DNA of 56,586 nt from a virus (IMGVR_UViG_3300031565_000038:1-56586), one strand, 5' to 3'; counted from the first letter of the stretch, positions 2 through 27,181 are shown. The notes: generated from the letters alone by a model not told the origin. Translations and numbers: made by a program.

Positions 2-127
2 CAATGCTTACTGTGTAGCTTCGTATTAAGTTTGTGCAAGTGTTTTAAAAATTTTTGCCCACGCACATCAGTTTTTTCAAAACTGTAAGGATTGCTGTAC
101 TGCATCATAGTTAGTTTTGTGGTTACT
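2..127. repeat. Terminal overlap, copy 1 (circular contig)
   Basis: 2..127 is identical to 56461..56586 (126 bp); the preceding base differs (t at 1, c at 56460). Confidence 0.95.
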
Positions 128-766
128 CCAAATTGCTTCCGTTGTTTTACTGTAAGCTCCCGATAAATCAATCATTGGTTTAAACGGTAGCCAGTCTGCC
201 TTTGTATTTTCACAAACAATTACTTGTCCATTTCTACTTTTACACCATTCTGCAAGTTTGATAAAATCAATATTTTTAGTACTTTCTCTATAATGCTCAC
301 CGCCAAATTGGTAAGGTGGGTCAATAAACCAAGTAGATTCTGTGTTTTCCAATTCTTCATAACTCCCGTTTATTATTGTCCAATGCTTTATTTTAAATAA
401 TTGTTTTGCTATTCTTTTTTTGTCACCTGATATATTGCTAAATTTTTGTACTATTTTTTGAGGCGATGCAATAGCTCCAGCAACCATAAAACCCATTAAT
501 AATTTTTCATCATCAGAAATATTAAAATCATCAATTGACTCTTTATATTTTGGTTCTGGTAAATTTAAAATATCTTTTTCCGTTGCTTTTTGTAGCCATT
601 TCCATATACGAATTATTTTTTCATATTTATCAACTATCGTAATATCATTCTGCCAATATTTCAAACTGTACCTTGCTGAACCTGCAAACGGTTCAATTAT
701 ATTTTTGTGCTTCGGTGGTGGATAGTAGTCCACAATCTTTGATTTACTTCCGTAATATGAAAACAT
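77..766 (-). CDS. DNA adenine methyltransferase (Dam/D12-like)
   Basis: YYGSK, EPFAGSA and DPPY motifs. Confidence 0.85.
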   Translation of the reverse strand: MFSYYGSKSKIVDYYPPPKHKNIIEPFAGSARYSLKYWQNDITIVDKYEKIIRIWKWLQKATEKDILNLPEPKYKESIDDFNISDDEKLLMGFMVAGAIASPQKIVQKFSNISGDKKRIAKQLFKIKHWTIINGSYEELENTESTWFIDPPYQFGGEHYRESTKNIDFIKLAEWCKSRNGQVIVCENTKADWLPFKPMIDLSGAYSKTTEAIWSNHKTNYDAVQQSLQF

Positions 767-836
767 AAAAAATCCTCCCTAAAAATTTTTAAAACAAGAA
801 CATTCGTACTCGTATCGAACTGTATCGGTTATTGTC

Positions 837-863
837 GCACTGGTCATATACCCAACGTTAGCA
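837..863 (+). repeat. attC-like right arm and R' box; pairs with 56442..56466 across the join
   Basis: gcactggtcatatacc is the near reverse complement of ggtatataaccaatgc (56451..56466); GTTAGCA at 857. Confidence 0.8.
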
Positions 864-869
864 GTAATG

Positions 870-1172
870 CTAAATAACCTCTAACCATGCTACTTTTTCT
901 TGTGTTAGCCAATTATGAGCAAATTTTGAAAGTGGGTAATTCTTTTCGGGTTCAGAATCACTATTTACATACAATCTTCCATGTTTACTTACAATTGTTC
1001 CTGTAATGTCTTTATCTCCACTTCTCATATATGAACGCTGATATGTTATAAATCCCTTTACTTTCATACCAACTTTCAAAATAATACCTTCTCTGTTAAT
1101 GAAAGCACTACTGCTAACAAGCGGTAATACGGCATTGCCTTGTGCTTCATGGATGATTTTTTCTGTGTTCAT
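870..1172 (-). CDS. Cassette hypothetical protein
   Basis: ORF; starts inside the attC-like loop. Confidence 0.7.
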   Translation of the reverse strand: MNTEKIIHEAQGNAVLPLVSSSAFINREGIILKVGMKVKGFITYQRSYMRSGDKDITGTIVSKHGRLYVNSDSEPEKNYPLSKFAHNWLTQEKVAWLEVI

Positions 1173-1244
1173 AATTTTGTTCTCGTATTTAAGTTATTAC
1201 TAATTTGATAGTTCGGCAACGACCGCATACCGCAGCCGTTAACT
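1112..1244 (+). repeat. attC-like site
   Basis: ctgcTAAC..cggtaatacgg / ccgcataccg..GTTaact; R'' matches cassette start gttagcagt at 857. Confidence 0.85.
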
Positions 1245-1575
1245 ACAATTGCCGCTTATGGCAATCATCTGTTAAGTATTTTCCGCATTCGCAAAATCTA
1301 TCATTTTCTTTAGACGGTGAGAAATAATGCGGCAACAGATAGTTAACAGCAGATATATTTAATGCTTGTTTTTCGTTCTCATAGAAACTTTTGTAATCAT
1401 CAACATCAAATTCAGCAAGTCCATAACAATCAATTGCTAAATCATCTACCTGTTGTTGTGTTAAACATATTGATGTTTTACCCATTAGCAACATTATACC
1501 ACCGTGTCTTGCTTGGTATATGTTGAAATCTCCTTTATAGGTTGTGTCTCCTATTTGATAGCTGAATTTTCCCAT
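1243..1575 (-). CDS. Cassette hypothetical protein (C-terminal CxC..CH)
   Basis: ORF; mostly within the attC loop. Confidence 0.7.
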   Translation of the reverse strand: MGKFSYQIGDTTYKGDFNIYQARHGGIMLLMGKTSICLTQQQVDDLAIDCYGLAEFDVDDYKSFYENEKQALNISAVNYLLPHYFSPSKENDRFCECGKYLTDDCHKRQL

Positions 1576-1631
1576 TTTATTAAAGTTTTTTGTTATTAAA
1601 TCGCACTAAATATATCTGCATCCCGTTATAG
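1341..1631 (+). repeat. attC-like site with long coding loop
   Basis: gcagatatatttaatgc / gcactaaatatatctgc arms; GTT at 1625. Confidence 0.85.
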
Positions 1632-1907
1632 TGAATTTCCCTCCCACACTACATTTGAAAATCTATCCATCCAATCTTTGGCTCTATTCATATTTTTTAT
1701 GTGCGTATTAACACGTTTTTTGGCTTCTTCAAACGTTTCACATATTACAGAACTTGGCTTAGTAAATCTACCAATCTGCATACTATTAATATTTAACCAT
1801 AAGCCAAAAATCTTATATTGTGCAGTAAAATAAGTTTCAGCAAATGGGTGCTGCCATTCTTTAATTCTATATTTAAGTTTCATATAATTTGTTTTGCCAC
1901 CGCTCAA
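1626..1907 (-). CDS. Cassette hypothetical protein
   Basis: ORF; stop codon is the TTA of the crossover. Confidence 0.7.
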   Translation of the reverse strand: MSGGKTNYMKLKYRIKEWQHPFAETYFTAQYKIFGLWLNINSMQIGRFTKPSSVICETFEEAKKRVNTHIKNMNRAKDWMDRFSNVVWEGNSL

Positions 1908-1914
1908 AAACTCA

Positions 1915-2010
1915 CTATAACAAAGTGTAAAGTTTATAAGCCAGTGAAGTTTATATTCATTTAATCAAAGTCCGTGCGTGGCTTACAAAACCTTACACAA
2001 ACCGTTAGCA
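1915..2010 (+). repeat. attC-like site
   Basis: cactaTAAC..gtgtaaagtttataagcca / tggcttacaaaaccttacac..GTTagca. Confidence 0.85.
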
Positions 2011-2016
2011 ACAACA

Positions 2017-2172
2017 CTACGTCAGTGCATTTTTCAAAGCCTGTGTTATCCAATAACGAACCATACCCGATTTATTGGAAGAGCCGAAAAACTCTTTCGA
2101 TACTTTTATCAAGTCTTGTTCTTCTTTTTCTGTAAGCGATAATGTAACCGCCTTTGTTTTTTCTTTTGCCAT
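2017..2172 (-). CDS. Small ribbon-helix-helix-like protein (51 aa, not in ORF track)
   Basis: MAKEKTKAVTLSLTEKEEQDLIKVSKEFFGSSNKSGMVRYWITQALKNALT; start overlaps the upstream stop. Confidence 0.6.
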   Translation of the reverse strand: MAKEKTKAVTLSLTEKEEQDLIKVSKEFFGSSNKSGMVRYWITQALKNALT

Positions 2173-2549
2173 TATTTTACGGTATTAATATCTACAGCTA
2201 AACCATCTTCTAACATTCCAAACACATCAAAATTATATTCAATAAGTCTTTTTACAACAACATAAGGTGCCCTATTATGCCAGTAAGCTCTTCCATATTC
2301 TAAATATTCATTATAGTAATATTCAAAGCTTGTAAAACCGAAAAAGTTATCTTTAAATACACCAATCTCACTACCAAAATCAACAGGTAATGTTTGCGTG
2401 TCTGTCAAAGGTCTTAAGATAGGTTTAAATCCTTTTTCTAAATGATAAGTTAAGTTTTCAGTTGTTAACTCTGTTTTCTTACCTACTGCATTTATAATAG
2501 ATAATGAGTGAGGCAAATAAGGTGCTACTTTTTCAAATTTAAGTTTCAT
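2172..2549 (-). CDS. Phage hypothetical protein
   Basis: ORF with PYLP..KPILRPL..FDVFG pattern; has its own promoter. Confidence 0.7.
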   Translation of the reverse strand: MKLKFEKVAPYLPHSLSIINAVGKKTELTTENLTYHLEKGFKPILRPLTDTQTLPVDFGSEIGVFKDNFFGFTSFEYYYNEYLEYGRAYWHNRAPYVVVKRLIEYNFDVFGMLEDGLAVDINTVK

Positions 2550-2586
2550 AATCGTATGTATTAAGTTTTAATGCGTTATTGCTCTA

Positions 2587-2617
2587 CAAAGATAGTAATT
2601 ATTTACTAATTACCAAA
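2587..2617 (-). promoter_or_regulatory. Bacteroidota sigma-A-type promoter inside a cassette
   Basis: TTTG-19 nt-TATCTTTG on the minus strand. Confidence 0.7.
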
Positions 2618-2646
2618 TAAATATTGCAATGATTTTACCGTGCAGT

Positions 2647-2745
2647 TGCTAACACGTTGTATATGTCAGTTTTGCCAATTGGTTTTTGTGCTTTGAATGA
2701 AGTATGTGCGTGGCAAAACCGAACACATACAACCATTCGTTATGC
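2647..2745 (+). repeat. attC-like site
   Basis: ttgcTAAC..gttgtatatgtcagttttgcca / tggcaaaaccgaacacatacaac..GTTatgc. Confidence 0.85.
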
Positions 2746-3096
2746 CCCATTAAAAAGGCGTTTAAACTTAGCTTGTATATATTTGTCCAATTCTTTCCGT
2801 AGGGCTTTCTTGTCAATACCCTTAGTGTTATAAAATCGAAAAATAATTGAGTTTCTTACTTTACCATCTTTTAAGTAGCAAGTGTCCATTCCTATTTCCC
2901 AATTGCAATCTGTAAATTGTACAATTATTTTCTTACAGTGTGCTTTTAACGAACCATTGTATGCTTCTTCATAGTAAGCCCTACTTTCTCGCTGGTTAAT
3001 AAGTAAGTCCTGCTCTTTTGCAGTCATTGTCTCTACATTTATTCCTATAATTGTCTGCATATCGTTAATTAACAACGGGGCATAACAACGCATCAT
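2740..3096 (-). CDS. Cassette hypothetical protein
   Basis: ORF; stop at crossover. Confidence 0.7.
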   Translation of the reverse strand: MMRCYAPLLINDMQTIIGINVETMTAKEQDLLINQRESRAYYEEAYNGSLKAHCKKIIVQFTDCNWEIGMDTCYLKDGKVRNSIIFRFYNTKGIDKKALRKELDKYIQAKFKRLFNGA

Positions 3097-3207
3097 AAAT
3101 AATAGCGGTGTTGTGCTTATCCGTAGGTTTATAATATTAATTTACTGCTTCTCATCTTTATAATTTAGTGCGGTTAATCCGCTACTATTCATATGCCAAC
3201 GTTACCA
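3080..3207 (+). repeat. attC-like site
   Basis: ggcaTAAC..gcatcataaataatagcgg / ccgctactattcatatgc..GTTacca. Confidence 0.85.
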
Positions 3208-3212
3208 CCCAT

Positions 3213-3497
3213 TTAAAGAAATTGCGGTGTAGGTATATCAAATCGCTTTTCTCGTGGCTCGCTATCATCGTAGTCACACTCTTTTAGTTTTGGTAAGTTA
3301 GGGTGCATTCCATCGTGTTTAATATGTTTATTGTATCGCTCGCAAATATGTGGGTACTTTTTACCATCTTCCACCTTGTCTTGTTCTCGCTCGGTTATGC
3401 TTAAATATTTGCATTTTCGGAAGCAAAAAACGGGTGGTAACAAAGGCTCATATTGCATAGCCTTGTCAGTTGTCGAAGTTTCATTCTTTTTTGTCAT
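3213..3497 (-). CDS. Cassette Cys-rich hypothetical protein
   Basis: ORF; start in attC loop. Confidence 0.7.
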   Translation of the reverse strand: MTKKNETSTTDKAMQYEPLLPPVFCFRKCKYLSITEREQDKVEDGKKYPHICERYNKHIKHDGMHPNLPKLKECDYDDSEPREKRFDIPTPQFL

Positions 3498-3564
3498 TTC
3501 AGTAAGTATTTAAAGTTTATATATTCAATCTAAAAGGCTACGCAACATAGCCAAACCGTTAGCA
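3435..3564 (+). repeat. attC-like site
   Basis: gtggTAAC..ggctcatattgcatagcc / ggctacgcaacatagcc..GTTagca. Confidence 0.85.
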
Positions 3565-3565
3565 C

Positions 3566-3736
3566 TTATTTACCTCGCTGTACGCTCGGTTTTTTCTTTC
3601 CCTTTAATTTTTTTATCCTTCTTCTTATATCCTTATCATCATACCAATCAATAATAACTGGCATTATCACAACCATAATGGCTATGAATACGTATGCCCC
3701 TATAATTACATATACTAAATTATCTTTGTTCATCAT
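3566..3736 (-). CDS. Small single-pass membrane protein (56 aa, not in ORF track)
   Basis: MMNKDNLVYVIIGAYVFIAIMVVIMPVIIDWYDD followed by a basic tail. Confidence 0.6.
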   Translation of the reverse strand: MMNKDNLVYVIIGAYVFIAIMVVIMPVIIDWYDDKDIRRRIKKLKGKKKPSVQRGK

Positions 3737-3842
3737 GTCAATATTTTTTTAAAAATTAAATGTTTCAATAAAAACCAATAAGTGCTAACGTCCTCTGTCT
3801 CGTTTCGCTGTAATTACCGCTCGGTAAACCCACTTCGTTAAG

Positions 3843-4135
3843 TGCTAACATAGTGTATAATGAATGACTTAGGCGAAACTCGTAATGAGGTTCTTGTTCT
3901 CAGTATTTAAAAGAAAATAAAATCTTTATTCCTTTTTTTCATACAAGCGGTGCAAATACTTTCGTCTTTTTTAACAATATATTTACCAGTTTCAACATTC
4001 CTAAATCCAGAATATCTAATATCTGCCTCAACACCGCAATCGGTACAATAATATTTTTTCTCTTTATTATCATTCATTATATTTTCTTTTAAATCCTTTC
4101 ACAATTCAACTCATTATACACAGAGGACGTTACCA
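3843..4135 (+). repeat. attC-like site with a gene in its loop
   Basis: gtgcTAAC..gtgtataatga / tcattatacac..GTTacca. Confidence 0.8.
3907..4077 (-). CDS. Small zinc-finger protein (56 aa, not in ORF track)
   Basis: MNDNKEKKYYCTDC...ICTACMKK; two CxxC pairs. Confidence 0.6.
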   Translation of the reverse strand: MNDNKEKKYYCTDCGVEADIRYSGFRNVETGKYIVKKDESICTACMKKRNKDFIFF

Positions 4136-4200
4136 ACAATTTGCCAGTAAAAAAGTGCATAAAACGAAACGTAAGTACTGGCAAACTGTACGCTTCGCTT

Positions 4201-4642
4201 TGGTAACAACTTGTATATTCTATGCGCTGTGCATAGAATCAGCGGATTCCTCCCCTATTGTCATTTCTTCTTTACAGTCTTTAAGCATATTTATAAAACT
4301 ATCTATACTTTCAACTTTGTTAAAAACAAAAACAAGTTCAGGTTGCATTTCATCAAAGCTTTCAACACTTGCTTTTTCAATAACGTTTATCGGTCTTGGT
4401 TCAGTTACTGTTTTCATAGCGAGTACTGTTTCGCCGTTTTCGCCTTTTTCAGATCCTAGCATCCAAACATCGCCAGTTCCCATTTCACAAACCATTACAT
4501 TTTTTGTTTTTCCGTAAGTTGCATTTTTTGTTATCATCTTGTTTTTGTTTTTGCCTACACACCGTATGCGAGCGGTTATACATTTATTTTAGTTTCGTGC
4601 GATCCGGTAAAGCGCACATAACATACAATTCGATCGTTAGCG
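4201..4642 (+). repeat. attC-like site enclosing a whole ORF
   Basis: tggTAAC..ttgtatattctatgcgct / agcgcacataacatacaa..GTTagcg. Confidence 0.75.
4220..4537 (-). CDS. Hypothetical protein in attC loop
   Basis: ORF. Confidence 0.7.
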   Translation of the reverse strand: MITKNATYGKTKNVMVCEMGTGDVWMLGSEKGENGETVLAMKTVTEPRPINVIEKASVESFDEMQPELVFVFNKVESIDSFINMLKDCKEEMTIGEESADSMHSA

Positions 4643-4861
4643 GTAATAAGTCACAGTATAATCTGTACCTTCTACTGCTAAATCACATCCTATTATTACT
4701 TTAGGTGGCTCAAATAATGGTGTGTGTTCTGGCATCTTAATATCACCATTTTCAAAGTGTTTTTGCATTTGTGCTATGCGGTTTAATTTACTACCGCTAA
4801 CAACAGGTAAATTGCATTGCTGCTTTCTACCATTAAATAAGTTTTTTATAAATTTCAACAT
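4637..4861 (-). CDS. Cassette hypothetical protein
   Basis: ORF; stop at crossover. Confidence 0.65.
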   Translation of the reverse strand: MLKFIKNLFNGRKQQCNLPVVSGSKLNRIAQMQKHFENGDIKMPEHTPLFEPPKVIIGCDLAVEGTDYTVTYYR

Positions 4862-4922
4862 CTGTTCTATTTTTTAAGTTTTTACTAAATTCACGCAACG
4901 CAACTTACCCAAACCGTTATCG
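4795..4922 (+). repeat. attC-like site
   Basis: cgcTAAC..ggtaaattgcattgc / gcaacgcaacttacc..GTTatcg. Confidence 0.85.
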
Positions 4923-4946
4923 ACAATGCCGCTGCGCTTGACGAAG

Positions 4947-5198
4947 TCAATCAGTTTGTTTAATCAAATACATCTTAAAACACTTACTACACCATTTATT
5001 ACCATAAACGTCCTCGCTATCAGATTGTGTACAATCACAAACCTCCTTTGACTTCTCATTGTCGATAACGTTCTCACTTTCATTTGTTGCTTGAGAATTA
5101 ATCTGAATGAAATTTATTGCTCTTACTTCATCAGATCGCATATTATCTACTCCTGGTAATCTTAAATACTTTTGGAATTCAATTAATTCTTTCTTCAT
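4947..5198 (-). CDS. Cassette hypothetical protein (C-terminal CxC..CxxC)
   Basis: ORF. Confidence 0.65.
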   Translation of the reverse strand: MKKELIEFQKYLRLPGVDNMRSDEVRAINFIQINSQATNESENVIDNEKSKEVCDCTQSDSEDVYGNKWCSKCFKMYLIKQTD

Positions 5199-5237
5199 TG
5201 TTTCAATTTTAAATTTGTACTACGCTTGCGACACAGT

Positions 5238-5322
5238 CGATAACACACTGTATATCGAAAGCAACTAAATGAATGACTTTCCGCAACTGCGTTGCTCACG
5301 TCATACAGTGAGAACGTTATGT
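5238..5322 (+). repeat. attC-like site
   Basis: cgaTAAC..cactgtat / atacagtg..GTTatgt. Confidence 0.8.
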
Positions 5323-5640
5323 GGCATTTAAGATATGATACTCGTTCGGAGTAAAATTCCATGCCACCGCACCATCTTTAAATTTGAGTTTGGCGCAATC
5401 AATATCTCTATCTCTGTAATGTTTTCCATTGTCATCATACTCACAATATCCAGTTTCTACAACCGTTGCAAGTTTTCCTTTATGCCTGTACAAATTATAC
5501 CTTGTGCAAACTGTTTGCCCAACCCTCGCACGAATTTTGTTTCTACCTATGAACCACCTGAAAGCGGATAAGTAAAAACGCCACATAACAATGTATATAG
5601 CAAATTTGCGAGCTTTTAAGAAAGTTTTTACTGTATTCAT
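5317..5640 (-). CDS. Cassette hypothetical protein
   Basis: ORF; start in loop, stop at crossover. Confidence 0.7.
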   Translation of the reverse strand: MNTVKTFLKARKFAIYIVMWRFYLSAFRWFIGRNKIRARVGQTVCTRYNLYRHKGKLATVVETGYCEYDDNGKHYRDRDIDCAKLKFKDGAVAWNFTPNEYHILNAT

Positions 5641-5708
5641 AATTTATCTCATTTAATTAAGTTTCTACTAATTTGGATGGCAAACTTGCCATATTCTCAA
5701 CGTTGTGT
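5583..5708 (+). repeat. attC-like site
   Basis: acaTAAC..atatagcaaatttgc / gcaaacttgccatat..GTTgtgt. Confidence 0.85.
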
Positions 5709-5852
5709 GTAATTTAAAGAACCCGTAGGCTTATTTTAGCACGTGCCTACGGGAGCTCGTCCGTGCATCCATTTTGTTGTTGTAGCAGGTAATTCGTCAA
5801 TTATCGCTATTTCTGGGAATGTGATTTTAAACCCAATATCTTAATAAACTAC

Positions 5853-5982
5853 ACACAACAATTTATATAATTAATAGCTGTGGTAGTGGTTATTTTAAAG
5901 AACTATCATTTATTAAGCCTATGCAAATATATGAAAATTATAGCATTTAATACGCTACTAATCATATAAGTAGCCGTTGTAG
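5853..5982 (+). repeat. attC-like site with a promoter motif in its loop
   Basis: acaCAAC..ttatataattaatagc / gctactaatcatataa..GTTgtag; TATATTTG (minus) at 5924..5931. Confidence 0.8.
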
Positions 5983-5992
5983 GCAATTTTGC

Positions 5993-6241
5993 TTAGTAAG
6001 TGCATTGCCCACCACATTTTCTACATTCACCTGTACCTGCTATCAAATCTTGCACACCATCGCATTCGCAAAACTGTTCGCTTTGCCCTACAACATTAGC
6101 TATACCCAATAATTTTAACTTAGCTTGGTGGTATGCTTCAAGGGCTTTCTCCGTATCGTTTACATCTGTTTGGAATTGTGGTGAATATTGCGTTGGCATA
6201 TTCGGTATTCCGTGTTCATCTAAAAATTCTTTTGCTGTCAT
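5993..6241 (-). CDS. Cassette hypothetical protein (C-terminal zinc ribbon)
   Basis: ORF; CxC..CxxC. Confidence 0.65.
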   Translation of the reverse strand: MTAKEFLDEHGIPNMPTQYSPQFQTDVNDTEKALEAYHQAKLKLLGIANVVGQSEQFCECDGVQDLIAGTGECRKCGGQCTY

Positions 6242-6293
6242 TTTTTCGTTTTTAAGTCGTTAAAATTACTGTACATAGCCTTAGCCGTTGTAC
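6088..6293 (+). repeat. attC-like site
   Basis: ctaCAAC..gctatacccaataattttaac / gttaaaattactgtacatagc..GTTgtac. Confidence 0.8.
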
Positions 6294-6402
6294 TCAATAT
6301 TGCCCCTTAAATCCGTACTCTTTAAGAACATCAGCGAGTAACTTTGATTTTTCTTCTGGGATTGGTCCCCACCGCACTTTGGTTTTTGCAAAACCATTTG
6401 GG

Positions 6403-6489
6403 TTAAGAGCAATGCCCTGTACTACCTCCACAATGTCCCGCCATTGCTTCAATAAAGTTTGCAACTTTTCTCAAAACTTTCGTGTACAT
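6403..6489 (-). CDS. Putative RiPP precursor peptide (28 aa, not in ORF track)
   Basis: MYTKVLRKVANFIEAMAGHCGGSTGHCS; ATG 4 nt after the rSAM stop. Confidence 0.7.
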   Translation of the reverse strand: MYTKVLRKVANFIEAMAGHCGGSTGHCS

Positions 6490-6493
6490 AATT

Positions 6494-7363
6494 TTACCTC
6501 CATTGTTTAGTTAAACATCCATTTTCATATATAACACCGTATTTATTTGGTGCTGTTTTGTTAAATAATTTATAAGCAACTTTTACACCGTCCATAAATG
6601 AAGCTGTTAGCGTTTCCTCACACATAAAACACGAGCGTTTTAAAAGTAGTGGCGTTTTCATTTCTTTTAGCTCCTGTATTTTTGCAGTTTCTAAATACTT
6701 TTGACAACCACTATAAAAAGGTGTCCCTAGTTTAATACCAAAGGTTTTTTCAAACGAAACAAAGTATTCTTTTCCGTGTTGTATTTCGGAAAGTTTAATC
6801 GAATCAAATCCCATTTTATCGTAATGCAATAAACAGGCTGTAATATCTTCTTTCGTGTACAGATAAGGTTTCACAATATTTAGGTTAATTCTAATCTTTT
6901 CTTTATGTGGCAACGAAGCATAAAAAGCCTGTCTATCATATTTTGAAGGTACTTTCCTTATTTCGTCTGCAATTTCTTCTTTATAATGTTGTACCGAAAG
7001 GTTTATGCCGTCAATTATTTCTAAAAGTTCGGTAAACAAATCAAACCTATCACTACATATTTTTGGTATTGCAGTTGTTACAAATATTTTGAGTTTTGTT
7101 TTTTCTCTAACTTGTTTTACACAGTCCAAGAGTTCCTGTAAATAAAGGCAAGGTTCACCACCTAAAAACAATACATCATCGTATCCGTTTTGGTTTTCAA
7201 CTATGGTGTTTACTATCGCTTGTACATCGGGTTTCTTTATTCCAAAACCTTCATACTTTAAATCAATGCAATGCGAACACTTATTATCACAAGCACTTGT
7301 AAAATGTATGTCAAATGAGTTATACAACCCATCACAACAGTTTTTAATAAAAATATTTGCCAT
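6494..7363 (-). CDS. Radical SAM protein (putative peptide maturase)
   Basis: CDNKCSHC (CX3CX2C) and GGEP motifs. Confidence 0.9.
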   Translation of the reverse strand: MANIFIKNCCDGLYNSFDIHFTSACDNKCSHCIDLKYEGFGIKKPDVQAIVNTIVENQNGYDDVLFLGGEPCLYLQELLDCVKQVREKTKLKIFVTTAIPKICSDRFDLFTELLEIIDGINLSVQHYKEEIADEIRKVPSKYDRQAFYASLPHKEKIRINLNIVKPYLYTKEDITACLLHYDKMGFDSIKLSEIQHGKEYFVSFEKTFGIKLGTPFYSGCQKYLETAKIQELKEMKTPLLLKRSCFMCEETLTASFMDGVKVAYKLFNKTAPNKYGVIYENGCLTKQWR

Positions 7364-7428
7364 CGCTTCGCTGTTTTTAATTACTATTTTAGTTTTTCAA
7401 TTTAAGTTTATCAGTTAAAACCGCCAGC

Positions 7429-7557
7429 CACTAACACGTGGTATAAAACAAAGCGGTTTTAGTGGTACTCGAAGTTGTCTGCCACGTGCCAAGTTTATTG
7501 TAACTTGATAATTCAGTCCTCGCAGTCCGCTTCGATTTCATACCACCATCGTTAACG
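7429..7557 (+). repeat. attC-like site
   Basis: cacTAAC..gtggtataaaacaaagcgg / ccgcttcgatttcataccac..GTTaacg. Confidence 0.8.
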
Positions 7558-7590
7558 AAAATGTTGCAAGCAACCGCAAAAAACGAGTTG

Positions 7591-7803
7591 TTAATACCAG
7601 TAATCACAGTTACCATGTTCGCAAGCATTAAGAGTACAGTTACCATTTGGTTCATCCGAATGACAACTCTTTTCTTTTTGCTCATTTTCGTTAACGTTTC
7701 GAGCTTCTCTTTGATGCTTTAAAATTTTTCTAATCTTACGTAGTTCAATTGAAGTAACTATAAATAGTATTCCAGCTAAACAGTTAATAATAATTTGTGT
7801 CAT
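7591..7803 (-). CDS. Cassette protein with N-terminal TM helix and Cys-rich tail
   Basis: ORF. Confidence 0.6.
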   Translation of the reverse strand: MTQIIINCLAGILFIVTSIELRKIRKILKHQREARNVNENEQKEKSCHSDEPNGNCTLNACEHGNCDYWY

Positions 7804-7864
7804 AATAAAAAATTTTATTTGTTAATACTTATTTAATTTCTTTTTCCTGATCTTGCAACACTTT

Positions 7865-7953
7865 CGCTAACAAAGCGTATAGTGAAAGCATCAAATCGAA
7901 TGGTTCTCCGCAACGCTTCGCATTGCTCTCACCATACGCTCGAAACGTTATAA
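7865..7953 (+). repeat. attC-like site
   Basis: cgcTAAC..agcgtatagtga / tcaccatacgct..GTTataa. Confidence 0.8.
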
Positions 7954-8193
7954 AACAGTTTGCGAAGGAAAGTATTGGCATTTTTCGCATTCTTGATTAT
8001 CAAATGGGCATCCAAGTATATCGAATTGCGGATGATCGCAAACCGATTTTATAACAGCAGGTATAACACAGTTTTTTGCTGCGTATTCTGCCATTAAGTT
8101 AGCTACTGCATTTAATGTAAAGTTGGTTCCAGTTCCGTACCCTTCATTATCCAAGTACTGTTTTGCATTTTCAATGTCTTCTTTTGTGTACAT
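7948..8193 (-). CDS. Cassette hypothetical protein
   Basis: ORF; stop at crossover. Confidence 0.65.
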   Translation of the reverse strand: MYTKEDIENAKQYLDNEGYGTGTNFTLNAVANLMAEYAAKNCVIPAVIKSVCDHPQFDILGCPFDNQECEKCQYFPSQTVL

Positions 8194-8255
8194 TTTATTT
8201 AAGTTTTAGTTATTAATCCGCAAAAAACCGATGTCATACCTGCGTTCCGTTATAG
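8049..8255 (+). repeat. attC-like site
   Basis: ttaTAAC..gcaggtataaca / tgtcatacctgc..GTTatag. Confidence 0.85.
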
Positions 8256-8624
8256 GGCATTTAAAAACTCGCCCCTCCACATCTTTTTAATTAATTTATC
8301 GTTTACTTGTTTTACCTCATATTTTCGCATCAAAGGGAATCTTTCACTTGCCGAAAGTGATTGCCACCAATCTTTCCATTCGTTTTTAAAAATAACGCTT
8401 GGAATGTAATCTTGCTCATAATCACAATTAAGGCACTTTAAAATAACCTTACCATTTACCTCATTGCCTACAAGTGGCAAATGTTGGCTATCATTTCCAC
8501 AAGTTAATTCGTGCCAATTATCATTATGTTGGAAAATTGCTATTTTGCTTAATATTTCTTTATTGTTCATAATCTCATTTATTTTGATTTGTTGGTATGC
8601 GTAGTTTCGTGCTTTCAAATGCAA
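8250..8624 (-). CDS. Cassette hypothetical protein (likely start 8570)
   Basis: ORF; stop at crossover; left attC arm not found. Confidence 0.65.
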   Translation of the reverse strand: MHLKARNYAYQQIKINEIMNNKEILSKIAIFQHNDNWHELTCGNDSQHLPLVGNEVNGKVILKCLNCDYEQDYIPSVIFKNEWKDWWQSLSASERFPLMRKYEVKQVNDKLIKKMWRGEFLNAL

Positions 8625-8645
8625 CCGACCACATATACTTTTTCG

Positions 8646-9392
8646 TTAACGGCAAGCAAAAGAAGCGTCCGTGCGTTCAAATTCGTACACAAAAACCCAA
8701 GGATTAGAATTGAGATTATCAAATCCGTTAATTTTTGCCCATAATGAACGATAAGAAGCAATTGCCGGATGAACACCACCTGTTTGCAAATGGCTTCCAT
8801 CATCCCAAAATCCTACCATTGGTTCAACATACGATTTATAGCGGGTTTGGCACATTTGTTGCCATTTTTCGATACCTTCTGCAATTGCATCTTCCTTTGT
8901 AATATCTTCGAGCCGTTCAATTCTAATTTTTGTAAGTATCAAGAAAATACGGCAAGCATTTTTAGTCATAAATATTGAAGGTTTCCAAGTCCAATGTTCG
9001 TAATCCTCCCACGGTTGCCCATCAGCTTTATAAACATATCCGTAGTTTTCATCAGTTGGGTGTAAGTTCAATACTTTTGTATGTTGCCATGTTTCACGCA
9101 CCCAAAGTATGTCACCTACTTTGTATTTCATTTTAAACAATGAGCCTCCATATTGTCCGTTTTCGTGAACTCCTCTAACTTCAAATTGGTCTTTATCTGT
9201 AAATGCAGAGAATCCAATTTTAGGGTCTGTTATTTTTTTTGAGTATTTAACTATCCGTCTGGTTTGTGTCTTTTCTCCTCTCAATATCGCCTGAACCATT
9301 GGAGTTGAGAAAAGAATAGGTTTACAATTGCCAGCCGTTAACACGCCATATACTCCATTGGCGTGTTCGTTGGTATTCGTAGTTTCTGTCAT
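8646..9392 (-). CDS. ASCH/PUA-like phage protein
   Basis: PILFSTPMVQAILRGEKTQTRR, GDILWVRETW, WKPSIFM and NPWVFVYEF motifs. Confidence 0.8.
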   Translation of the reverse strand: MTETTNTNEHANGVYGVLTAGNCKPILFSTPMVQAILRGEKTQTRRIVKYSKKITDPKIGFSAFTDKDQFEVRGVHENGQYGGSLFKMKYKVGDILWVRETWQHTKVLNLHPTDENYGYVYKADGQPWEDYEHWTWKPSIFMTKNACRIFLILTKIRIERLEDITKEDAIAEGIEKWQQMCQTRYKSYVEPMVGFWDDGSHLQTGGVHPAIASYRSLWAKINGFDNLNSNPWVFVYEFERTDASFACR

Positions 9393-9466
9393 TTTATAAA
9401 GTTTTTAGTAAATTGATAAATTTGTTCGTTCTAATCGCCAACGTAAGCATATGGCAACCGTTATCT
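9336..9466 (+). repeat. attC-like site
   Basis: cgtTAAC..gccatatactccattggcg / cgccaacgtaagcatatggc..GTTatct. Confidence 0.85.
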
Positions 9467-9471
9467 TCCAT

Positions 9472-9852
9472 TTAAGGAAGACTAATCACATTAAGTATTG
9501 CAGGTATCCAATTCGCAGTAATTCCTTTTTTATTATTTATCGAGTATGTGAGCAAAGTTCCGCAGCTTATAAATGTCGAATGCTTAATAAAAGTAGGTGA
9601 AAAAGGAATTTCGCTTGGGGTTTCCTTTTCGCAAATATCTGGTCGTAAATCTAACAGGTGTTTAACTCTATCCCATTCTTTTTGTGTTTTGACAATATAG
9701 CATTCATTAAAATCTAATGAGCGAAAAACGGAAGATAACAAAGGCTCATATTGCATAGCCTTGTTTTCTGGTAAATTACTCATGTTAAATGTTGCTACAC
9801 TTTTGCCATGTTCATATGCTTTTAGGTATTCTTTCTTTGTTAAATCGCTCAT
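9472..9852 (-). CDS. Cassette hypothetical protein
   Basis: ORF; shares KAMQYEPLL with 3213..3497. Confidence 0.65.
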   Translation of the reverse strand: MSDLTKKEYLKAYEHGKSVATFNMSNLPENKAMQYEPLLSSVFRSLDFNECYIVKTQKEWDRVKHLLDLRPDICEKETPSEIPFSPTFIKHSTFISCGTLLTYSINNKKGITANWIPAILNVISLP

Positions 9853-9933
9853 TACTTAGTATTTTTTAAGGTTATTACTTTCTATTTATTTTGGTGGGTA
9901 ATTCACGCACTACCCATACGTACACCGTTAGGT
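9733..9933 (+). repeat. Chimeric attC-like site
   Basis: Left arm identical to 3438..3466; right arm not complementary; GTT at 9927. Confidence 0.7.
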
Positions 9934-10188
9934 GGCATTTAAAGAAATGTACTTGGTATCTATTTCAAGTTGCTGTATTTCAGTTAAGCCATTACCTTTT
10001 GCTCTGTTTTTATTGAACTTCAAGCAATCATAACACACCTTTACTTCATTTACCGTTAAGGCTATTTTGTTATCGTTAGAACAAACGCCACATAACAATG
10101 TGTCAACAATAATTACTGGCTTTTCCGGTATGTCAAATAATTTTTTTTGTATAATCATTACATTAATTTTGAAAGGTTTATATCTCAA
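9928..10188 (-). CDS. Cassette hypothetical protein
   Basis: ORF; two CxxC; stop at crossover. Confidence 0.6.
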   Translation of the reverse strand: MRYKPFKINVMIIQKKLFDIPEKPVIIVDTLLCGVCSNDNKIALTVNEVKVCYDCLKFNKNRAKGNGLTEIQQLEIDTKYISLNAT

Positions 10189-10221
10189 ATTCCGTAACTA
10201 TTGTTACACTATCCGTTAGCA
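10090..10221 (+). repeat. attC-like site
   Basis: acaTAAC..gtgtcaacaataattac / gtaactattgttacac..GTTagca. Confidence 0.85.
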
Positions 10222-10222
10222 C

Positions 10223-10507
10223 TTAAACGAGCGTCCCAGTTACATCAGCTTCAATTTTGAAAATTGCTTGTATTCTATTTTTTGAACCATCTTTTTCGCA
10301 TTCTGAAACAAACGATTCTAATTCAATATCTGAATTAATACCATAAGCTCCGTTTAAATCTAAATCACCATCGGTAATTACAATATACTTTGTATTTTCT
10401 CTCACCGAATTATCTCTAAATTTACACCCATTGTATTCCATTTTGATAAAAATTAACTGGCTATAACACACAATAAAAAATATATAGGCGTTTGTACTAT
10501 TATTCAA
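10223..10507 (-). CDS. Cassette hypothetical protein (likely start 10441)
   Basis: ORF. Confidence 0.6.
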   Translation of the reverse strand: MNNSTNAYIFFIVCYSQLIFIKMEYNGCKFRDNSVRENTKYIVITDGDLDLNGAYGINSDIELESFVSECEKDGSKNRIQAIFKIEADVTGTLV

Positions 10508-10664
10508 GGTTTGTGCCCCTCTTTGGCTTTTTTAAAGCCATTAGGTATTCACTACATATAAACTCAATCATTCCGCTAAAACTGCGTCTTTGTTTTGTAG
10601 CTTCTTTCTTAATCTCAGCGTTTATTTCGCTATCAATCGTTAAACTTTCTCTGTCCTTTGCCAT
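10500..10664 (-). CDS. Ribbon-helix-helix (CopG/Arc-like) regulator (54 aa, not in ORF track)
   Basis: MAKDRESLTIDSEINAEIKKEATKQRRSFSGMIEFICSEYL. Confidence 0.65.
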   Translation of the reverse strand: MAKDRESLTIDSEINAEIKKEATKQRRSFSGMIEFICSEYLMALKKPKRGTNLE

Positions 10665-10683
10665 AATTTTTTATATAAAAAAA

Positions 10684-11026
10684 GGGTTACCGATGCAGCC
10701 CTGTACAAAACATTGAGTTGGTCAATTAATACTCTTAGAAACTTTTACCAGGGGTTTAAAAGAACTTTGCTTTTTACATTTTAATCTTTAAAGCGTAAGA
10801 ACTTTTAATTTTAACCTTTTTGCTTTTAACTTTCAGCGTTAAACTTTTCAAGTTTTTGCAGTCTTATGCTCTAACCATCTGAGCTAATTCCCCGACTTTC
10901 GTCTGGCGGAGAATACTGGAATCGAACCAGCGACACTAAGAACCCATTGCATGTTAGTTTAGCAAACCGGTGCTTTTCTAACCCTCAAGCAGGGAATTGA
11001 ATTTATGTTTTTCGCATCGGTATTCC
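10684..11026 (-). ncRNA. Candidate structured ncRNA (about 340 nt)
   Basis: 9-bp closing stem (11014..11022 with 10688..10696) followed by a U-tract; embedded tRNA halves; 7-nt periodic A-rich tract; no long ORF. Confidence 0.65.
10855..10943 (-). tRNA. Circularly permuted tRNA-like element (3' half + CCA, GAC-GAAA-GUC linker, 5' half)
   Basis: 3' half UCUUA-GUGUC-GCUGG UUCGAUU CCAGU-AUUCUCC-G-CCA precedes 5' half GGGGAAU-UA-GCUC AGAUGGUUA GAGC-A-UAAGA-CUGCAAA; acceptor and anticodon stems pair between the halves. Confidence 0.75.
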
Positions 11027-11040
11027 TTTATTAGTTTTAA

Positions 11041-11709
11041 TTAAATTTCAATTACTGTTATTGCGTTAATTTCAGAAAGAACAGCGTCAACTTCTGTCTC
11101 AAATTCATTTACTTCATTTTGCAAATTCTCTGTAAGTTCTTCAACTTTCAAAGGGTCAACTAAATGAAATTCCTTACGCTTCACAAACGGCTCAACAATG
11201 TTTTTAACATCTTCATCGTTAGGTTTTACCCTATCATCACCTTGTTTGCCAATCATAATTTTAGCGTTCTCTAAAGCAACATTGTTTACTTTCTCATTTT
11301 CCTGAGTAAATTTTGCTTTTACTGCGTTGTGCTTTTGACTCAACCTTGCGATAAGGTTTTTCTTAACAGCTATTACAGTTTTAAAATTAATTGCATCTGC
11401 AATAGTCATTGTTTTTCCTCCAATTTTAACAATGGTCGTTCCGTTTGCTTTTACAATAGCTGATTTAATAGAGTTTTTACGCTCAATCAAATCTGAAACT
11501 GATTGAAACTTAGCCTTTACATCTTTCTCGAAATCATCTTTTGCGTAAAAACCATTAACAGGCTTATTCAATTGCATTAAACCAGTTGGCTCAACTACAT
11601 TAATAGCTTTTTCAATTCTTGCATCAATCAGTTTTAGTTCCGACAATGCTCGGTGAATAGTCATTTTTGTCTTTTCCATAATATTTAAAACTTTAAATGT
11701 TAAGTGCAA
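11041..11709 (-). CDS. Coiled-coil protein resembling DUF6847/DIP1984-type proteins (likely start 11679)
   Basis: MTIHRALSELK..., MTIADAI and C-terminal VDAVLSEINAITVIEI; family assignment from memory of the pattern. Confidence 0.6.
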   Translation of the reverse strand: MHLTFKVLNIMEKTKMTIHRALSELKLIDARIEKAINVVEPTGLMQLNKPVNGFYAKDDFEKDVKAKFQSVSDLIERKNSIKSAIVKANGTTIVKIGGKTMTIADAINFKTVIAVKKNLIARLSQKHNAVKAKFTQENEKVNNVALENAKIMIGKQGDDRVKPNDEDVKNIVEPFVKRKEFHLVDPLKVEELTENLQNEVNEFETEVDAVLSEINAITVIEI

Positions 11710-11736
11710 ATATATAGTATTATTTTATATTGTCAA
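11707..11736 (-). promoter_or_regulatory. Promoter
   Basis: TTGACA...TATATTTG. Confidence 0.7.
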
Positions 11737-11853
11737 GTATTATTAAGTATTTTTTTCAACAATATTTTTCCAACGCTCAAAATATTTTAACATTTATAAT
11801 CCTAATTAAATTCTGTGGTAACTTGATAAAAGCAACCGTATCATATTTAAACG

Positions 11854-12075
11854 TTATAACCCATTTTTACTTTTGTACAGTTCAATCAGTTCTGCAAAAG
11901 ATATTACAGGTACTCCAAAATCTCCTTCTTCTGCAAACCCATGTACTTCAATAAATTTTGTTGCTTCAATCACTTCTATTTTTGCTTCTTTAACAAGCCA
12001 TATCCAAAATGGGGTTATAACACTACCTATATGTAATGCCTTTCCGTTTTTATCAAATATTTCTAAGTTATCCAT
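11854..12075 (-). CDS. Cassette hypothetical protein
   Basis: ORF; start in loop, stop at crossover. Confidence 0.65.
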   Translation of the reverse strand: MDNLEIFDKNGKALHIGSVITPFWIWLVKEAKIEVIEATKFIEVHGFAEEGDFGVPVISFAELIELYKSKNGL

Positions 12076-12153
12076 TGTTTAAGTTTTTTAAGTTAGTATA
12101 GTAATTTATTTAAGTCGGCGCTACACATAGACAAACCGTTAGCAAACATTTGA

Positions 12154-13645: not shown

Positions 13646-13939
13646 CTACTTACTAAGCTCAATTAAGCAATTCTTTAGTATTTCAAACGCATCCTCTTGC
13701 GCTGCTTCTGTTGTGGAAAATCCAGCCCCACGCTCACTCGGTTCATGCAAGCTTTCTTCTAACACTTTCAATGCTTTTTCGGCAGCATCTTCTATTGCGT
13801 TATCCACACGCTCTTGCTCTTCAATTTCTTCCATAGCTATTCCATAACCTTCCCAGTTATCTACTCCAGCGCATTCCAACGCACGCATTTTAGATTCAAT
13901 CAACTCTAATTCTTTTAATCTACTTTTTGAAATTTCCAT
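13646..13939 (-). CDS. Cassette hypothetical protein
   Basis: ORF; LExAGVDNWEGY motif. Confidence 0.75.
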   Translation of the reverse strand: MEISKSRLKELELIESKMRALECAGVDNWEGYGIAMEEIEEQERVDNAIEDAAEKALKVLEESLHEPSERGAGFSTTEAAQEDAFEILKNCLIELSK

Positions 13940-14177
13940 ATCTATATTTTTTGTGGTTTAATAAACCGTACTACACACAACAATTTGTATAATTCAGTTG
14001 GCGTGTGTGCTTAGTCCAACTTTTGCACTTTTAATTTAGTTTATATCGGTTCGACAATTTAGTGCTATTAATGCCAACCGAAATCATACAATGGTCGTTA
14101 TAGCGAATTATTTTTTAACCGCCTTATTGCAAGCATATATCCTTCGTGTAAGAAAATTTCGCATTTATGGTATATTC

Positions 14178-18003: not shown

Positions 18004-18579
18004 TCATTTTACCTTAAAATTTTTTTCCTTTGCCAGTTCCTTGCATTTTTCCTTATAAGTTTCAATGATTTCTATAAGCGAAACCCTGTCCCATTTGAAA
18101 GATATCCTTTTGTAATGATCGGCAATAAAACGAAGCCTGTCCATTCTTTCCTGACCTATTTTTTCAACAAGTTTTTTTCCGTATTCTATGGCGTTTGAGT
18201 GTTTGTAATAATTATCGCCCTTGGACTGCAAGTTAACGTTGTCCTCATTGAATTTCAACTCGCTTACAGTAGATGGGTAATAATGCCCGGCATGGCAGTT
18301 TGGGTGTCCATATTTTAATGGTTTTCCAGAACTTATACAAAACCCATTGCCATTTTCGTCAGTATCACGAAGCCTGATGAATTTATTGAACCATTTTTGT
18401 GCTGTTCCCTTAAGTTGGTCAATGTTTTTATCACTGTATTTTTGTATTTTTTTTGAGTCCATGATTCTAATTTTTTGGTTGTTTATGTTGCGTATATTTG
18501 AAAGTTGTATGCAATTAAAAAGCGATACCACCGCAATCTTCACAACAACTATGTCCGTCATTAGGCTTTTGTTTTTCAC
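18004..18579 (-). CDS. ninG: NinG/Rap-family recombination endonuclease (likely start 18462)
   Basis: FNKFIRLRD, CISSG, HAGHY and FNEDNVNLQ motifs. Confidence 0.85.
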   Translation of the reverse strand: MKNKSLMTDIVVVKIAVVSLFNCIQLSNIRNINNQKIRIMDSKKIQKYSDKNIDQLKGTAQKWFNKFIRLRDTDENGNGFCISSGKPLKYGHPNCHAGHYYPSTVSELKFNEDNVNLQSKGDNYYKHSNAIEYGKKLVEKIGQERMDRLRFIADHYKRISFKWDRVSLIEIIETYKEKCKELAKEKNFKVK

Positions 18580-18784
18580 ACATAAGGCATTTAGAATCGC
18601 TTTTTAACGGCTCTCTTCGCCATACAACATTAAATATAAATAGTAAAAATTTACTACGTTTTGCGCTTCTTTCAATATCTCTGCATAGTCTCAACCAAGC
18701 TATGTTCAGTTCCATACATGCGCCTTGTAGTGTTTCTAATCTCATTAGTAGCCTTTGCTGTAAATTGTAATATGGTCTTTTCAT
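18515..18784 (-). CDS. Cassette hypothetical protein
   Basis: ORF; start in loop. Confidence 0.65.
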   Translation of the reverse strand: MKRPYYNLQQRLLMRLETLQGACMELNIAWLRLCRDIERSAKRSKFLLFIFNVVWRREPLKSDSKCLMCEKQKPNDGHSCCEDCGGIAF

Positions 18785-18836
18785 GTCCGTAAATTTTTAC
18801 TATTCATATTATTCCCGTTACAGGCAATAAAAATTA

Positions 18837-19034: not shown

Positions 19035-19156
19035 AACCGTAATTTTAAAAGCCTATAACAATTTGTAAAAATAATAGCCAATATAGGCGTTTGTACTATT
19101 ATTCAAGGTTTGTGGTTTGGCTACTATTCTTACAAGTTAACATTAGCCTTCATTGA

Positions 19157-19822: not shown

Positions 19823-19878
19823 TTTACTAAGTTTTTGAAATTATAACTATTAAATAGCAACGTATCTTATCAGGGCTG

Positions 19879-20328
19879 TTATATAAAATTAGCAATCGTT
19901 TTTTCAAAATCCTCCATGCTTATCCAGTGCAGAATATGTTTGAGCATGGCATCAATGCACATACTGTATATCCTTGAAAATTCCACATCGTCCATCGACT
20001 TGAAGGATATAGAACGAGCTTGTAAATGTTCTTTTCCTGTCATATCGTAAATAACATCAGCTTCTCCTATCATTATCATTAGTTTTTTTCTAAGGTAATT
20101 GACATTCCTCAACCTGTCATATTCCTCTTCTTCAGGGAAAAGATATATGCATGCGTTCAGGAATGCAAAAAACTTTCTGTGAAAATCAACATTCCTTTCT
20201 TTCCATATATCAATATTGAGACAATCCCCATCATTTAATTTCAGGCTTTTTTTAAAACCGTCAAATTCAACGAAATCAACAGAATCACGGAAAGCGTCAA
20301 TATTTTTTATGGTGCATTTTAGTTCCAT
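19879..20328 (-). CDS. DUF1367-like protein
   Basis: RNVDFHRKFFAFL and SISFKSMD motifs. Confidence 0.75.
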   Translation of the reverse strand: MELKCTIKNIDAFRDSVDFVEFDGFKKSLKLNDGDCLNIDIWKERNVDFHRKFFAFLNACIYLFPEEEEYDRLRNVNYLRKKLMIMIGEADVIYDMTGKEHLQARSISFKSMDDVEFSRIYSMCIDAMLKHILHWISMEDFEKTIANFI

Positions 20329-27123: not shown

Positions 27124-27181
27124 AATTTCTGTTCTTTTAAATCGTTAAAAATCAAACCATACCCAAACCGTTAGCCACCAT

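Follow-up and report, generated by a model that had tools for sequence, protein, structure and literature searches.

Can a phage use integron-type recombination sites turned round, so that the site stands at the head of the gene? The question is raised by the virus record IMGVR_UViG_3300031565_000038, here called the window in its full length of 56,586 bases; its completeness is rated at 100%. Every sizeable open reading frame (ORF) of the window lies on the minus strand, and across positions 857-12144 small ORFs are separated by hairpins with AAC and GTT boxes. Integrons are a bacterial gene-capture system in which the cassettes are regarded as promoterless genes followed by a non-coding attC site. 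The original prediction for this locus held that the cassette genes are antisense to the attC, start inside its loop and stop at the crossover. We consider it probable, at roughly two chances in three, that the window carries a phage array of recombinase-less, head-first integron-like cassettes, with site use and starts as set out below. The reversed design is supported by orientation, by unit boundaries and by the evidence on starts, the starts themselves being predicted from sequence.

The hairpins form a family that can be observed directly. Read on the minus strand, the element consensus is 5'-(T/C)AACG-GTTTG-GnTATG ... loop ... TATAnC-yTGTT(A/G)-3'. Fifteen folded elements have 25-bp stems closed by TAAC/GTTA and loops of roughly 10 to 150 nucleotides (nt), a span that widens to roughly 10-250 nt over all elements examined. 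An asymmetric internal loop lies 5-6 bp after the box, so that boxes, unpaired spacer and variable loop occur together as in attC-type sites. MAFFT applied to 15 whole elements aligned only their ends. All 18 elements returned by a scan of positions 1-28000 that combined the pattern with a constrained fold are on the minus strand (plus strand: 0), and each of 20 dinucleotide shuffles yielded at most one (mean 0.1). The curated window set comprises 21 full hairpin elements and about six half or chimeric sites. The predicted array range of 857-12144 holds in so far as a dense array lies there, but five full elements fall outside it.

For a joint alignment, 50 elements were taken (10 from the window, 20 from other phage loci and 20 from bacteria). 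The AAC/GTT boxes are invariant in 50/50 of them, although the search pattern demanded this. Compensatory double changes occur in 14 of the 20 consensus pairs. Paired cells make up 94.9% of 982, against 69.4% in shuffles, double-change cells number 244 against 76.6, and the covariation score is 0.610 against 0.153, with slid controls at 0.06-0.12; for each of the three measures the observed value was reached by 0/500 shuffles. The percentage of paired cells is partly circular because the 50 elements were chosen by a fold filter, a circularity from which the double changes are free. Pair spectra are alike in the phage and bacterial sets, and Rfam held no family matching the hairpins.

One strand folds better than the other. 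The arms of 18 window elements form 49 G:T pairs if the minus (gene) strand folds and 2 if the plus strand does, and the minus strand gives the more stable fold in 17/18. The mean number of G:T pairs per element is 4.2 in phage loci and 5.15 in genome loci, and wobble G:U pairs are conserved in the joint alignment at column pairs 5:175 (47/50 elements) and 18:165 (43/50).

The same family occurs well beyond the window. An 18-letter pattern from the 5' arm was found in at least 117 IMG/VR contig stretches and at least 120 contig stretches of bacterial genomes, the latter, among the matches listed, mostly from Flavobacteriaceae or other Bacteroidota. A hairpin scan returned 228 hairpins from the viral contigs, the window and the Polaribacter phage P12002L combined, and 224 from the genome set, a part of both being noise; a family filter kept 164 phage-locus and 181 genome elements. 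The bacterial hairpins, uniform in length at about 125 nt and non-coding, form arrays in which as many as 9 occur per 8 kb.

With the TAACGG reading as reference, and with calls that rest on heuristics of flanking long ORFs, the genes of the bacterial elements are antisense to the G:T-rich folding strand in 161 cases, sense in 9 and unclear in 11 (n=181), whereas those of the phage-locus elements are sense in 120, antisense in 6 and unclear in 38 (n=164; window: 11 sense, 3 unclear). A bacterial gene ends just before the hairpin or within its first 30 nt in 144/181 cases. The canonical arrangement, with the gene upstream of and co-oriented with the attC top strand, is thus not the rule in the phage loci. 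The predicted antisense relation of genes and attC therefore stands, as phage genes are sense to the folding strand and bacterial array genes opposite, a flip between phages and bacteria that is observed directly.

In three of the five such bacterial genomes checked (L263, L264 and L265), the best integron-integrase-like gene adjoins the array. The array-adjacent integrases score 222, 208 and 193 bits against NF040815 (tyrosine recombinase/integron integrase; cut-off 220) and 216, 189 and 179 bits, in two pieces, against TIGR02249 (cut-off 265), so we describe the enzymes as Xer-like/IntI-like and not as canonical IntI. In a complete phage record of 78 kb, 10 elements precede a co-oriented recombinase of 269 amino acids (aa), which is 41-45% identical to two of the bacterial array integrases and 37% identical to the third; relatives of it follow the arrays of L098 and L088. 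The bacterial integrases carry an N-terminal extension of about 100 aa that is missing from the 269-aa phage enzyme, and they are co-oriented with the cassettes in L263 and L264 and divergent in L265. Read in the TAACGG direction, each of the three bacterial arrays has its integrase at the 3' end, and in L263 and L265 the integrase-proximal unit opens with a gene and not with a hairpin, as in a classical integron. Because the recombinase stands at the same array end in bacteria and in recombinase-bearing phages, the polarity of the array is the same in both and only the genes are reversed.

The units run from 5' box to 5' box and most exchange junctions fall in the 5' box region, which bears out the predicted stop at the crossover G|TTA; the boundary that fits is TAA|C when the gene strand is read and G|TTA on the plus strand. 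In locus L075 a cassette is duplicated from the exact TAAC, through a hairpin with a loop ATG and an ORF, to a TAAC whose TAA is the stop codon, and the two copies have unrelated upstream flanks. Contig pieces from three other coded runs (X2-X4, from other metagenomes) were placed on the window, and 24 pieces out of more than 1,200 were listed. Among these, X4 1231-1625, X4 5315-5704 and X2 11854-12141 are cassette pieces, with further ends at 8252, 8253 and 18815; an internal end falls -1 to +7 nt from a 5' box in 6/24. Two pieces begin at the ATG of ORF 13646-13939 and extend 5 nt beyond its stop codon, one loose contig end lies at ATG 1172, and ends also occur at 8225 and 6465. Contig joints with sides of 18-44 letters, which conserved arms can create, were excluded. 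Shared blocks of the cultured phages P12002L and P12002S are about 99.6% identical, and the two genomes are set apart by indels and replacements of cassettes; of the nine junctions displayed, seven lie in the 5' box region, five of them in the letters (T/C)AACG(T), and none lies at a 3' box. Surveys of BLAST block ends were uninformative, the ends lying far from landmarks in 70/74 cases for the phage loci and in 29/32 for the bacterial loci.

The stops and probable starts of the cassette ORFs fall on the hairpins themselves. At all ten ORF ends named by the original prediction (1626, 2740, 4637, 5317, 7948, 8250, 8646, 9928, 11854 and 19879) the plus strand reads GTTA, and the stop is the TAA of the minus-strand TAAC. 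Five of these boxes open full hairpins (1628, 2742, 5319, 7950 and 8252) and the other five are 5' half-sites (4639, 8648, 9930, 11856 and 19881). The nine recurring peptides that it listed (LPLVSSS, ISAVNYL, LPVVSGS, YIVMWRF, ANVVGQS, PAVIKSV, GSVITPF, EPLLPPV and GVLTAG) were likewise all recovered in ATG-initiated ORFs, precisely where translation passes through the 3' arm and GTTA box. Thirteen of the 21 curated elements contain the start of an ATG ORF of 50 aa or longer that extends beyond the 3' box. Upstream ORFs stop at the box or at most 45 nt before it in 18/21, and inside the 5' arm beyond the box in 0/21. ORF starts lie inside the element in 66/150 phage-locus elements versus 6/181 on the bacterial gene strand.

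Several ORFs leave little room for a later start. The first Cys of a CxxxC motif in ORF 3213-3497 lies 5 codons past the 3' box, and in ORF 9928-10158 the first cysteine of a CxxC motif is the codon right after it, with no in-frame ATG between in either case. ORF 8646-9392 (248 aa, with a weak ASCH match) has relatives in 26 viral loci, of which 18 align from residue 21-26, four from residue 32, three with later parts only and one with residues 1-27 only, that is, with the site-encoded leader; residues 1-20 are covered in 0/25 domain matches, and the first in-frame ATG past the box sits within the conserved core. Leaders are also common to unrelated proteins, as between 3438-3561 and 9736-9764 of the window, between L127 and L132, and between L103 and ORF 3213-3497. 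When 33 window cassette ORFs were compared by tblastn with phage loci (about 1 Mb) and bacterial loci (0.93 Mb), the only match was a leader of 23 residues. A AACTTAAA-like motif lies 3-25 nt upstream of many cassette ATGs, in loops or after short hairpins, and conserved modules in unrelated contexts often extend from the TAAC box to the ATG. On this evidence the loop ATGs are probably the true starts. A second conserved motif, TTTTGAGCGnTGG, stands after some hairpins and before the next ATG (window about 11760-11800 and about 1890-1910), and was also seen in the unrelated viral loci L023, L052, L104 and L114.

The array and its full elements are listed here by coordinates and strand.

857-12144, minus strand: dense part of the cassette array, with 16 full hairpin elements, half-sites and small ORFs between them.
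1115-1241, minus strand: element of 127 nt; loop ATG 1172 as predicted start of ORF 870-1172 (100 aa); 3' arm reads LPLVSSS.
1333-1628, minus strand: long-loop element of 296 nt; loop ATG 1575 as predicted start of ORF 1243-1575; box TAA (1628-1626) stops ORF 1626-1907; 3' arm reads ISAVNYL (residues 74-80).
1918-2007, minus strand: short non-coding element of 90 nt; next ATG 1883.
2650-2742, minus strand: short non-coding element of 93 nt; box TAA stops ORF 2740-3096.
3083-3204, minus strand: element of 122 nt; ATG 3096 (ORF 2740-3096) in its 3' arm.
3438-3561, minus strand: element of 124 nt; loop ATG 3497 as predicted start of ORF 3213-3497; arm reads EPLLPPV.
4798-4919, minus strand: element of 122 nt; loop ATG 4861 as predicted start of ORF 4637-4861 (LPVVSGS).
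5241-5319, minus strand: short non-coding element of 79 nt; box TAA stops ORF 5317-5640.
5586-5705, minus strand: CAAC-box element of 120 nt; loop ATG 5640 as predicted start of ORF 5317-5640 (YIVMWRF).
6091-6290, minus strand: long-loop element of 200 nt; ATG 6241 as predicted start of ORF 5993-6241; 3' arm reads ANVVGQS (residues 48-54).
7432-7554, minus strand: non-coding element of 123 nt, preceding the radical SAM ORF 6494-7363.
7868-7950, minus strand: short non-coding element of 83 nt; box TAA stops ORF 7948-8193.
8052-8252, minus strand: long-loop element of 201 nt; box TAA stops ORF 8250-8624; ATG 8193 as predicted start of ORF 7948-8193, with PAVIKSV as residues 45-51.
9339-9463, minus strand: element of 125 nt; loop ATG 9392 as predicted start of ORF 8646-9392; arm reads GVLTAG.
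10093-10218, minus strand: element of 126 nt; loop ATG 10158 as predicted start of ORF 9928-10158.
12018-12141, minus strand: element of 124 nt; loop ATG 12075 as predicted start of ORF 11854-12075 (GSVITPF).
13978-14100, minus strand: element of 123 nt, outside 857-12144; next ATG 13939.
18625-18820, minus strand: element of 196 nt; loop ATG 18784 (ORF 18515-18784).
19056-19139, minus strand: short element of 84 nt.
23498-23610, minus strand: element of 113 nt with CAAC...GTTG boxes.
26976-27173, minus strand: element of 198 nt; loop ATG 27123 as predicted start of ORF 26830-27123; related copies in many IMG/VR contigs.

The half and chimeric sites are the following.

835-860, minus strand: 5' half-site (TAAC at 860-857) after ORF 870-1172; no matching 3' arm found.
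4612-4639, minus strand: 5' half-site; TAA stops ORF 4637-4861.
8620-8648, minus strand: 5' half-site; TAA stops ORF 8646-9392.
9736-9930, minus strand: chimeric element; 5' arm at 9930, the TAA of which stops ORF 9928-10158.
11830-11856, minus strand: 5' half-site; TAA stops ORF 11854-12075.
19855-19881, minus strand: degenerate 5' half-site (TAACA...); TAA stops the NinB-like ORF 19879-20328.

An exact 34-nt repeat (19081-19114 = 10482-10515) was also seen; its first copy is the loop of element 19056-19139, and the copy at 10482-10515 is followed by an isolated stretch resembling a 3' arm, beyond the small ORF 10500-10664.

The explanation that we favour is that the repeats would be the folded-single-strand recombination sites of an integron-like system of Bacteroidota, with (T/C)AAC...GTT(A/G) boxes and a Xer-like/IntI-like tyrosine recombinase, not a canonical IntI, as its putative enzyme. 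In the phage the sites would be used head-first, the G:T-rich folding strand being the coding strand, from which follows a cassette that opens with the C of a TAA|C box, comprises the hairpin and a single ORF, and closes with the TAA of the box that comes after. In 13/21 elements the ATG in the terminal loop or 3' arm would cause the 3' arm and box to be translated as an N-terminal leader of 5 to 81 codons, and in 10 cases the TAA of the next box serves as stop codon. Exchange may be catalysed in trans by the recombinase of the host or of a co-infecting phage, cutting at AA|C, and homologous recombination between conserved 5' arms may provide a second route.

A number of observations weigh against this explanation. 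Coding elements are only 13 of the 21, and the other eight are non-coding, with the ATG after the hairpin. Of the nine P12002L/P12002S junctions, two lie 10-15 nt further into the 5' arm and two at a AACTTTAAA motif before an ATG, and the exchanges at both places look homologous rather than site-specific. One X4 loose end falls at the 3' box of element 7432-7554. The arms of the chimeric element 9736-9930 are unmatched: its 5' arm at 9930 fails to pair with 9764-9736, its 3' arm, which over 45 nt shares 91% identity with the 3' arm region of element 3438-3561. By tblastn, the 0.93 Mb of bacterial array loci contain no relative of any of the 33 window cassette ORFs, and so give no sign of exchange with host arrays. 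The dependence of the orientation calls on ORF heuristics counts here as well. No recombinase was found in the window, in P12002L or in the examined part of P12002S; in the window, a profile search with PF00589 (Phage_integrase) and TIGR02249 (integron integrase), to which 14/14 control genomes responded, had no match at E up to 1, and four recombinases used as tblastn queries reached no better than E 1.1. Finally, in canonical attC sites the extrahelical bases of the recombined bottom strand lie opposite its AAC arm (G16, T23/24; PMC5027507). The original prediction had named the strand of these bases as a check, and the outcome goes against it: in both the phage and bacterial sets the extra bases without a partner sit in the 5' arm of the strand that carries the genes in phages, so that the canonical rule, taken alone, would make the gene strand the 'top' strand. 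This layout, a mirror of the canonical one, is the main reason why the sites are not filed here as canonical attC.

Among the alternatives, the one that survives best, although we consider it unlikely, is that the hairpins derive from attC but now act mainly in the mRNA, as insulators, as processing sites or in the presentation of start codons between cistrons, gene shuffling being a by-product of homologous recombination at the conserved arms and A-rich motifs, a route proposed for the promoter-stem-loop (PeSL) cassettes of T4-like phages. The folding strand of the phage elements is the transcribed sense strand, so each read-through transcript would bear a 25-bp stem with G:U pairs. The start codons and the recurrent AACTTAAA-like motif in loops or just past short hairpins, the conserved modules from TAAC box to ATG, the two P12002L/P12002S events with homologous-looking junctions and the lack of a recombinase in the window also speak for such a role. 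However, the bacterial arrays have an equal G:T excess (5.15 per element) on a strand that is antisense to their genes, and RNA folding is thus unnecessary to explain the excess. The five junctions that fall within (T/C)AACG(T), the presence in some phages of the cognate recombinase at the end of the array and the lack of a matching Rfam family argue in the same direction.

A classical layout, in which the gene strand is the attC top strand, crossover occurs at the 3' box (G|TTA on the minus strand), starts lie downstream and loop ATGs are artefacts of choosing the longest ORF, is in our judgement highly improbable. It would accommodate the unpaired extra bases on the 5' arm of the gene strand, which resemble those of canonical top strands, as well as the eight of 21 non-coding elements with the ATG past the hairpin and the X4 loose end at the 3' box of 7432-7554. 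Yet units and indel junctions lie at 5' boxes, with 0 at a 3' box in P12002L/P12002S; gene orientation is opposite to that in bacterial arrays of the same family, the integrase-proximal unit of which opens with a gene; and G:T pairs are distributed 49 vs 2. The cysteine motifs and the conserved core of ORF 8646-9392, moreover, begin so near the box that a downstream ATG would come too late. An artefact of chance or annotation in AT-rich sequence with many TAA and ATG triplets, to which a loose AAC...GTT duplex scan (35 hits in the window vs 8-18 in shuffles, and dropped as too noisy) might lend some colour, is refuted by the stricter scan (18 vs a mean of 0.1), by covariation above 500 shuffles and all slid controls, and by the presence of the family in hundreds of loci.

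How, then, does the head-first array compare with known systems? Full-text literature searches returned no description of the reversed design, of coding through the site or of the Bacteroidota arrays. We know of no report of inverted integron cassettes that begin inside attC. The window resembles integron attC sites and sedentary chromosomal arrays in its imperfect AAC...GTT hairpins with an unpaired spacer after the box helix, bulges and a variable loop, in the better folding of one strand through G:T pairs, in its single-gene cassettes, in the unit boundary at the AAC/GTT box and in the frequent overlap of stop codon and box. In contrast to integrons, it is the folding (bottom-type) strand that carries the phage genes, each cassette opens with the hairpin, which is often predicted to be translated, the linked recombinase falls below the integron-integrase cut-off, and the window itself is observed to lack a recombinase. 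As to the definition of a complete integron (adjacent intI, attI and Pc), the locus fails on the recombinase; attI and Pc were not sought. With 21 elements it does agree with the definition of a cluster of attC sites lacking an integrase (CALIN; at least two attC-type sites and no integrase), provided that non-canonical sites count as attC-type.

CALINs have been reported in virulent phages by Qi et al. 2023 (PMC9892861), who give two sites in P12002L, in 'divergent directions', one of which was recombined by IntI1 in vivo. P12002L has the same hairpin family as the window and likewise no recombinase. Unlike the account in the portions of that paper considered here, we find at least eight elements of this family in P12002L, all in gene orientation; those portions make no mention of the orientation of gene and site, of coding through the site or of chromosomal arrays in Bacteroidota. 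With the Bacteroidota arrays the phage elements share the box/arm consensus TAACGGTTTG..TATG ... TATA..TGTTA, the G:T excess, the bulge pattern and the recombinase family, but the bacterial elements are uniform (about 125 nt) and non-coding, with genes on the other strand.

Three further systems are similar in part. Inverted cassettes with their own promoter, for instance toxin-antitoxin cassettes, occur in chromosomal integrons according to the consulted part of PMC13108822; their genes are also antisense to the usual direction and self-expressed, but they are a minority class, whereas the phage array is inverted throughout. In the PeSL cassettes of T4-like phages (PMC2839356 and PMC4122927, in the parts considered) conserved structured intergenic motifs also flank small accessory genes that are shuffled as modules in plastic regions. 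PeSLs are, however, promoter-terminator motifs, thought to be driven by homology, and are not known to have AAC/GTT boxes, a link to a tyrosine recombinase or bacterial cassette arrays. In the synthetic coding-embedded attC sites of Nivina et al. 2020 (PMC7439510, likewise in part) a recombination hairpin overlaps protein-coding sequence as well; those sites are engineered, and the phage overlap is natural and recurrent.

The remainder of the record is that of a phage with a structural and packaging block at 31-53 kb and a replication/recombination block that encodes a DnaB-like helicase, NinG, NinB and a RecE-like exonuclease. No phage record matched the structural region by megablast, and a distant search with the cassette array gave two short gene matches only. 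A D12-class N6-adenine DNA methyltransferase ORF (77-766, minus strand) lies at the distal end of the array, after the 5' half-site 835-860; methyltransferase cassettes were also seen to differ between P12002L and P12002S at box-bounded indels.

One cassette (6403-7363, minus strand) consists of the radical SAM ORF 6494-7363 followed by a 28-aa ORF (6403-6489) with a Cys/Gly-rich tail, and the two may be a pair of enzyme and precursor peptide. Eleven viral loci, on contigs ranging from 4 to 286 kb, encode relatives of the radical SAM enzyme; all lack hairpin elements and are therefore uninformative on cassette boundaries. Positions 10837-10961 (minus strand) weakly match YrlA, a Y RNA-like family with a tRNA-like module (33.4 bits vs a gathering score of 69; E 9e-4), and ARAGORN found no tRNA in the window. 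The small ORFs 2017-2172 and 10500-10664 (minus strand) have similar MAK..-rich N-termini and look, by eye, like ribbon-helix-helix regulators.

As a tentative extension, to which we give somewhat less than even odds, Bacteroidota phages may run an integron-like exchange network of their own. The head-first cassettes of this network, with a hairpin that would hold expression signals, start codon and N-terminal leader, would be self-expressing wherever they land in a phage, and the flipped polarity would keep the phage and host pools mutually unexpressed on crossover.

What the locus presents is an integron-type site turned round, heading each gene and often, by the predicted starts, translated, in a lytic-type phage and many related viral contigs. 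It ties the phage arrays to a large and poorly described class of Bacteroidota chromosomal arrays with a Xer-like enzyme. If the loop ATGs are used as predicted, natural proteins tolerate leaders encoded by a recombination site, which had previously been engineered only. Gene callers and integron finders of the standard kind will get starts, orientation and the number of sites wrong in such genomes. For the phages themselves, the array points to a site-guided route for the mosaicism of accessory regions (methyltransferases, a radical SAM enzyme, orphans), and its design suggests how such phages trade accessory genes.

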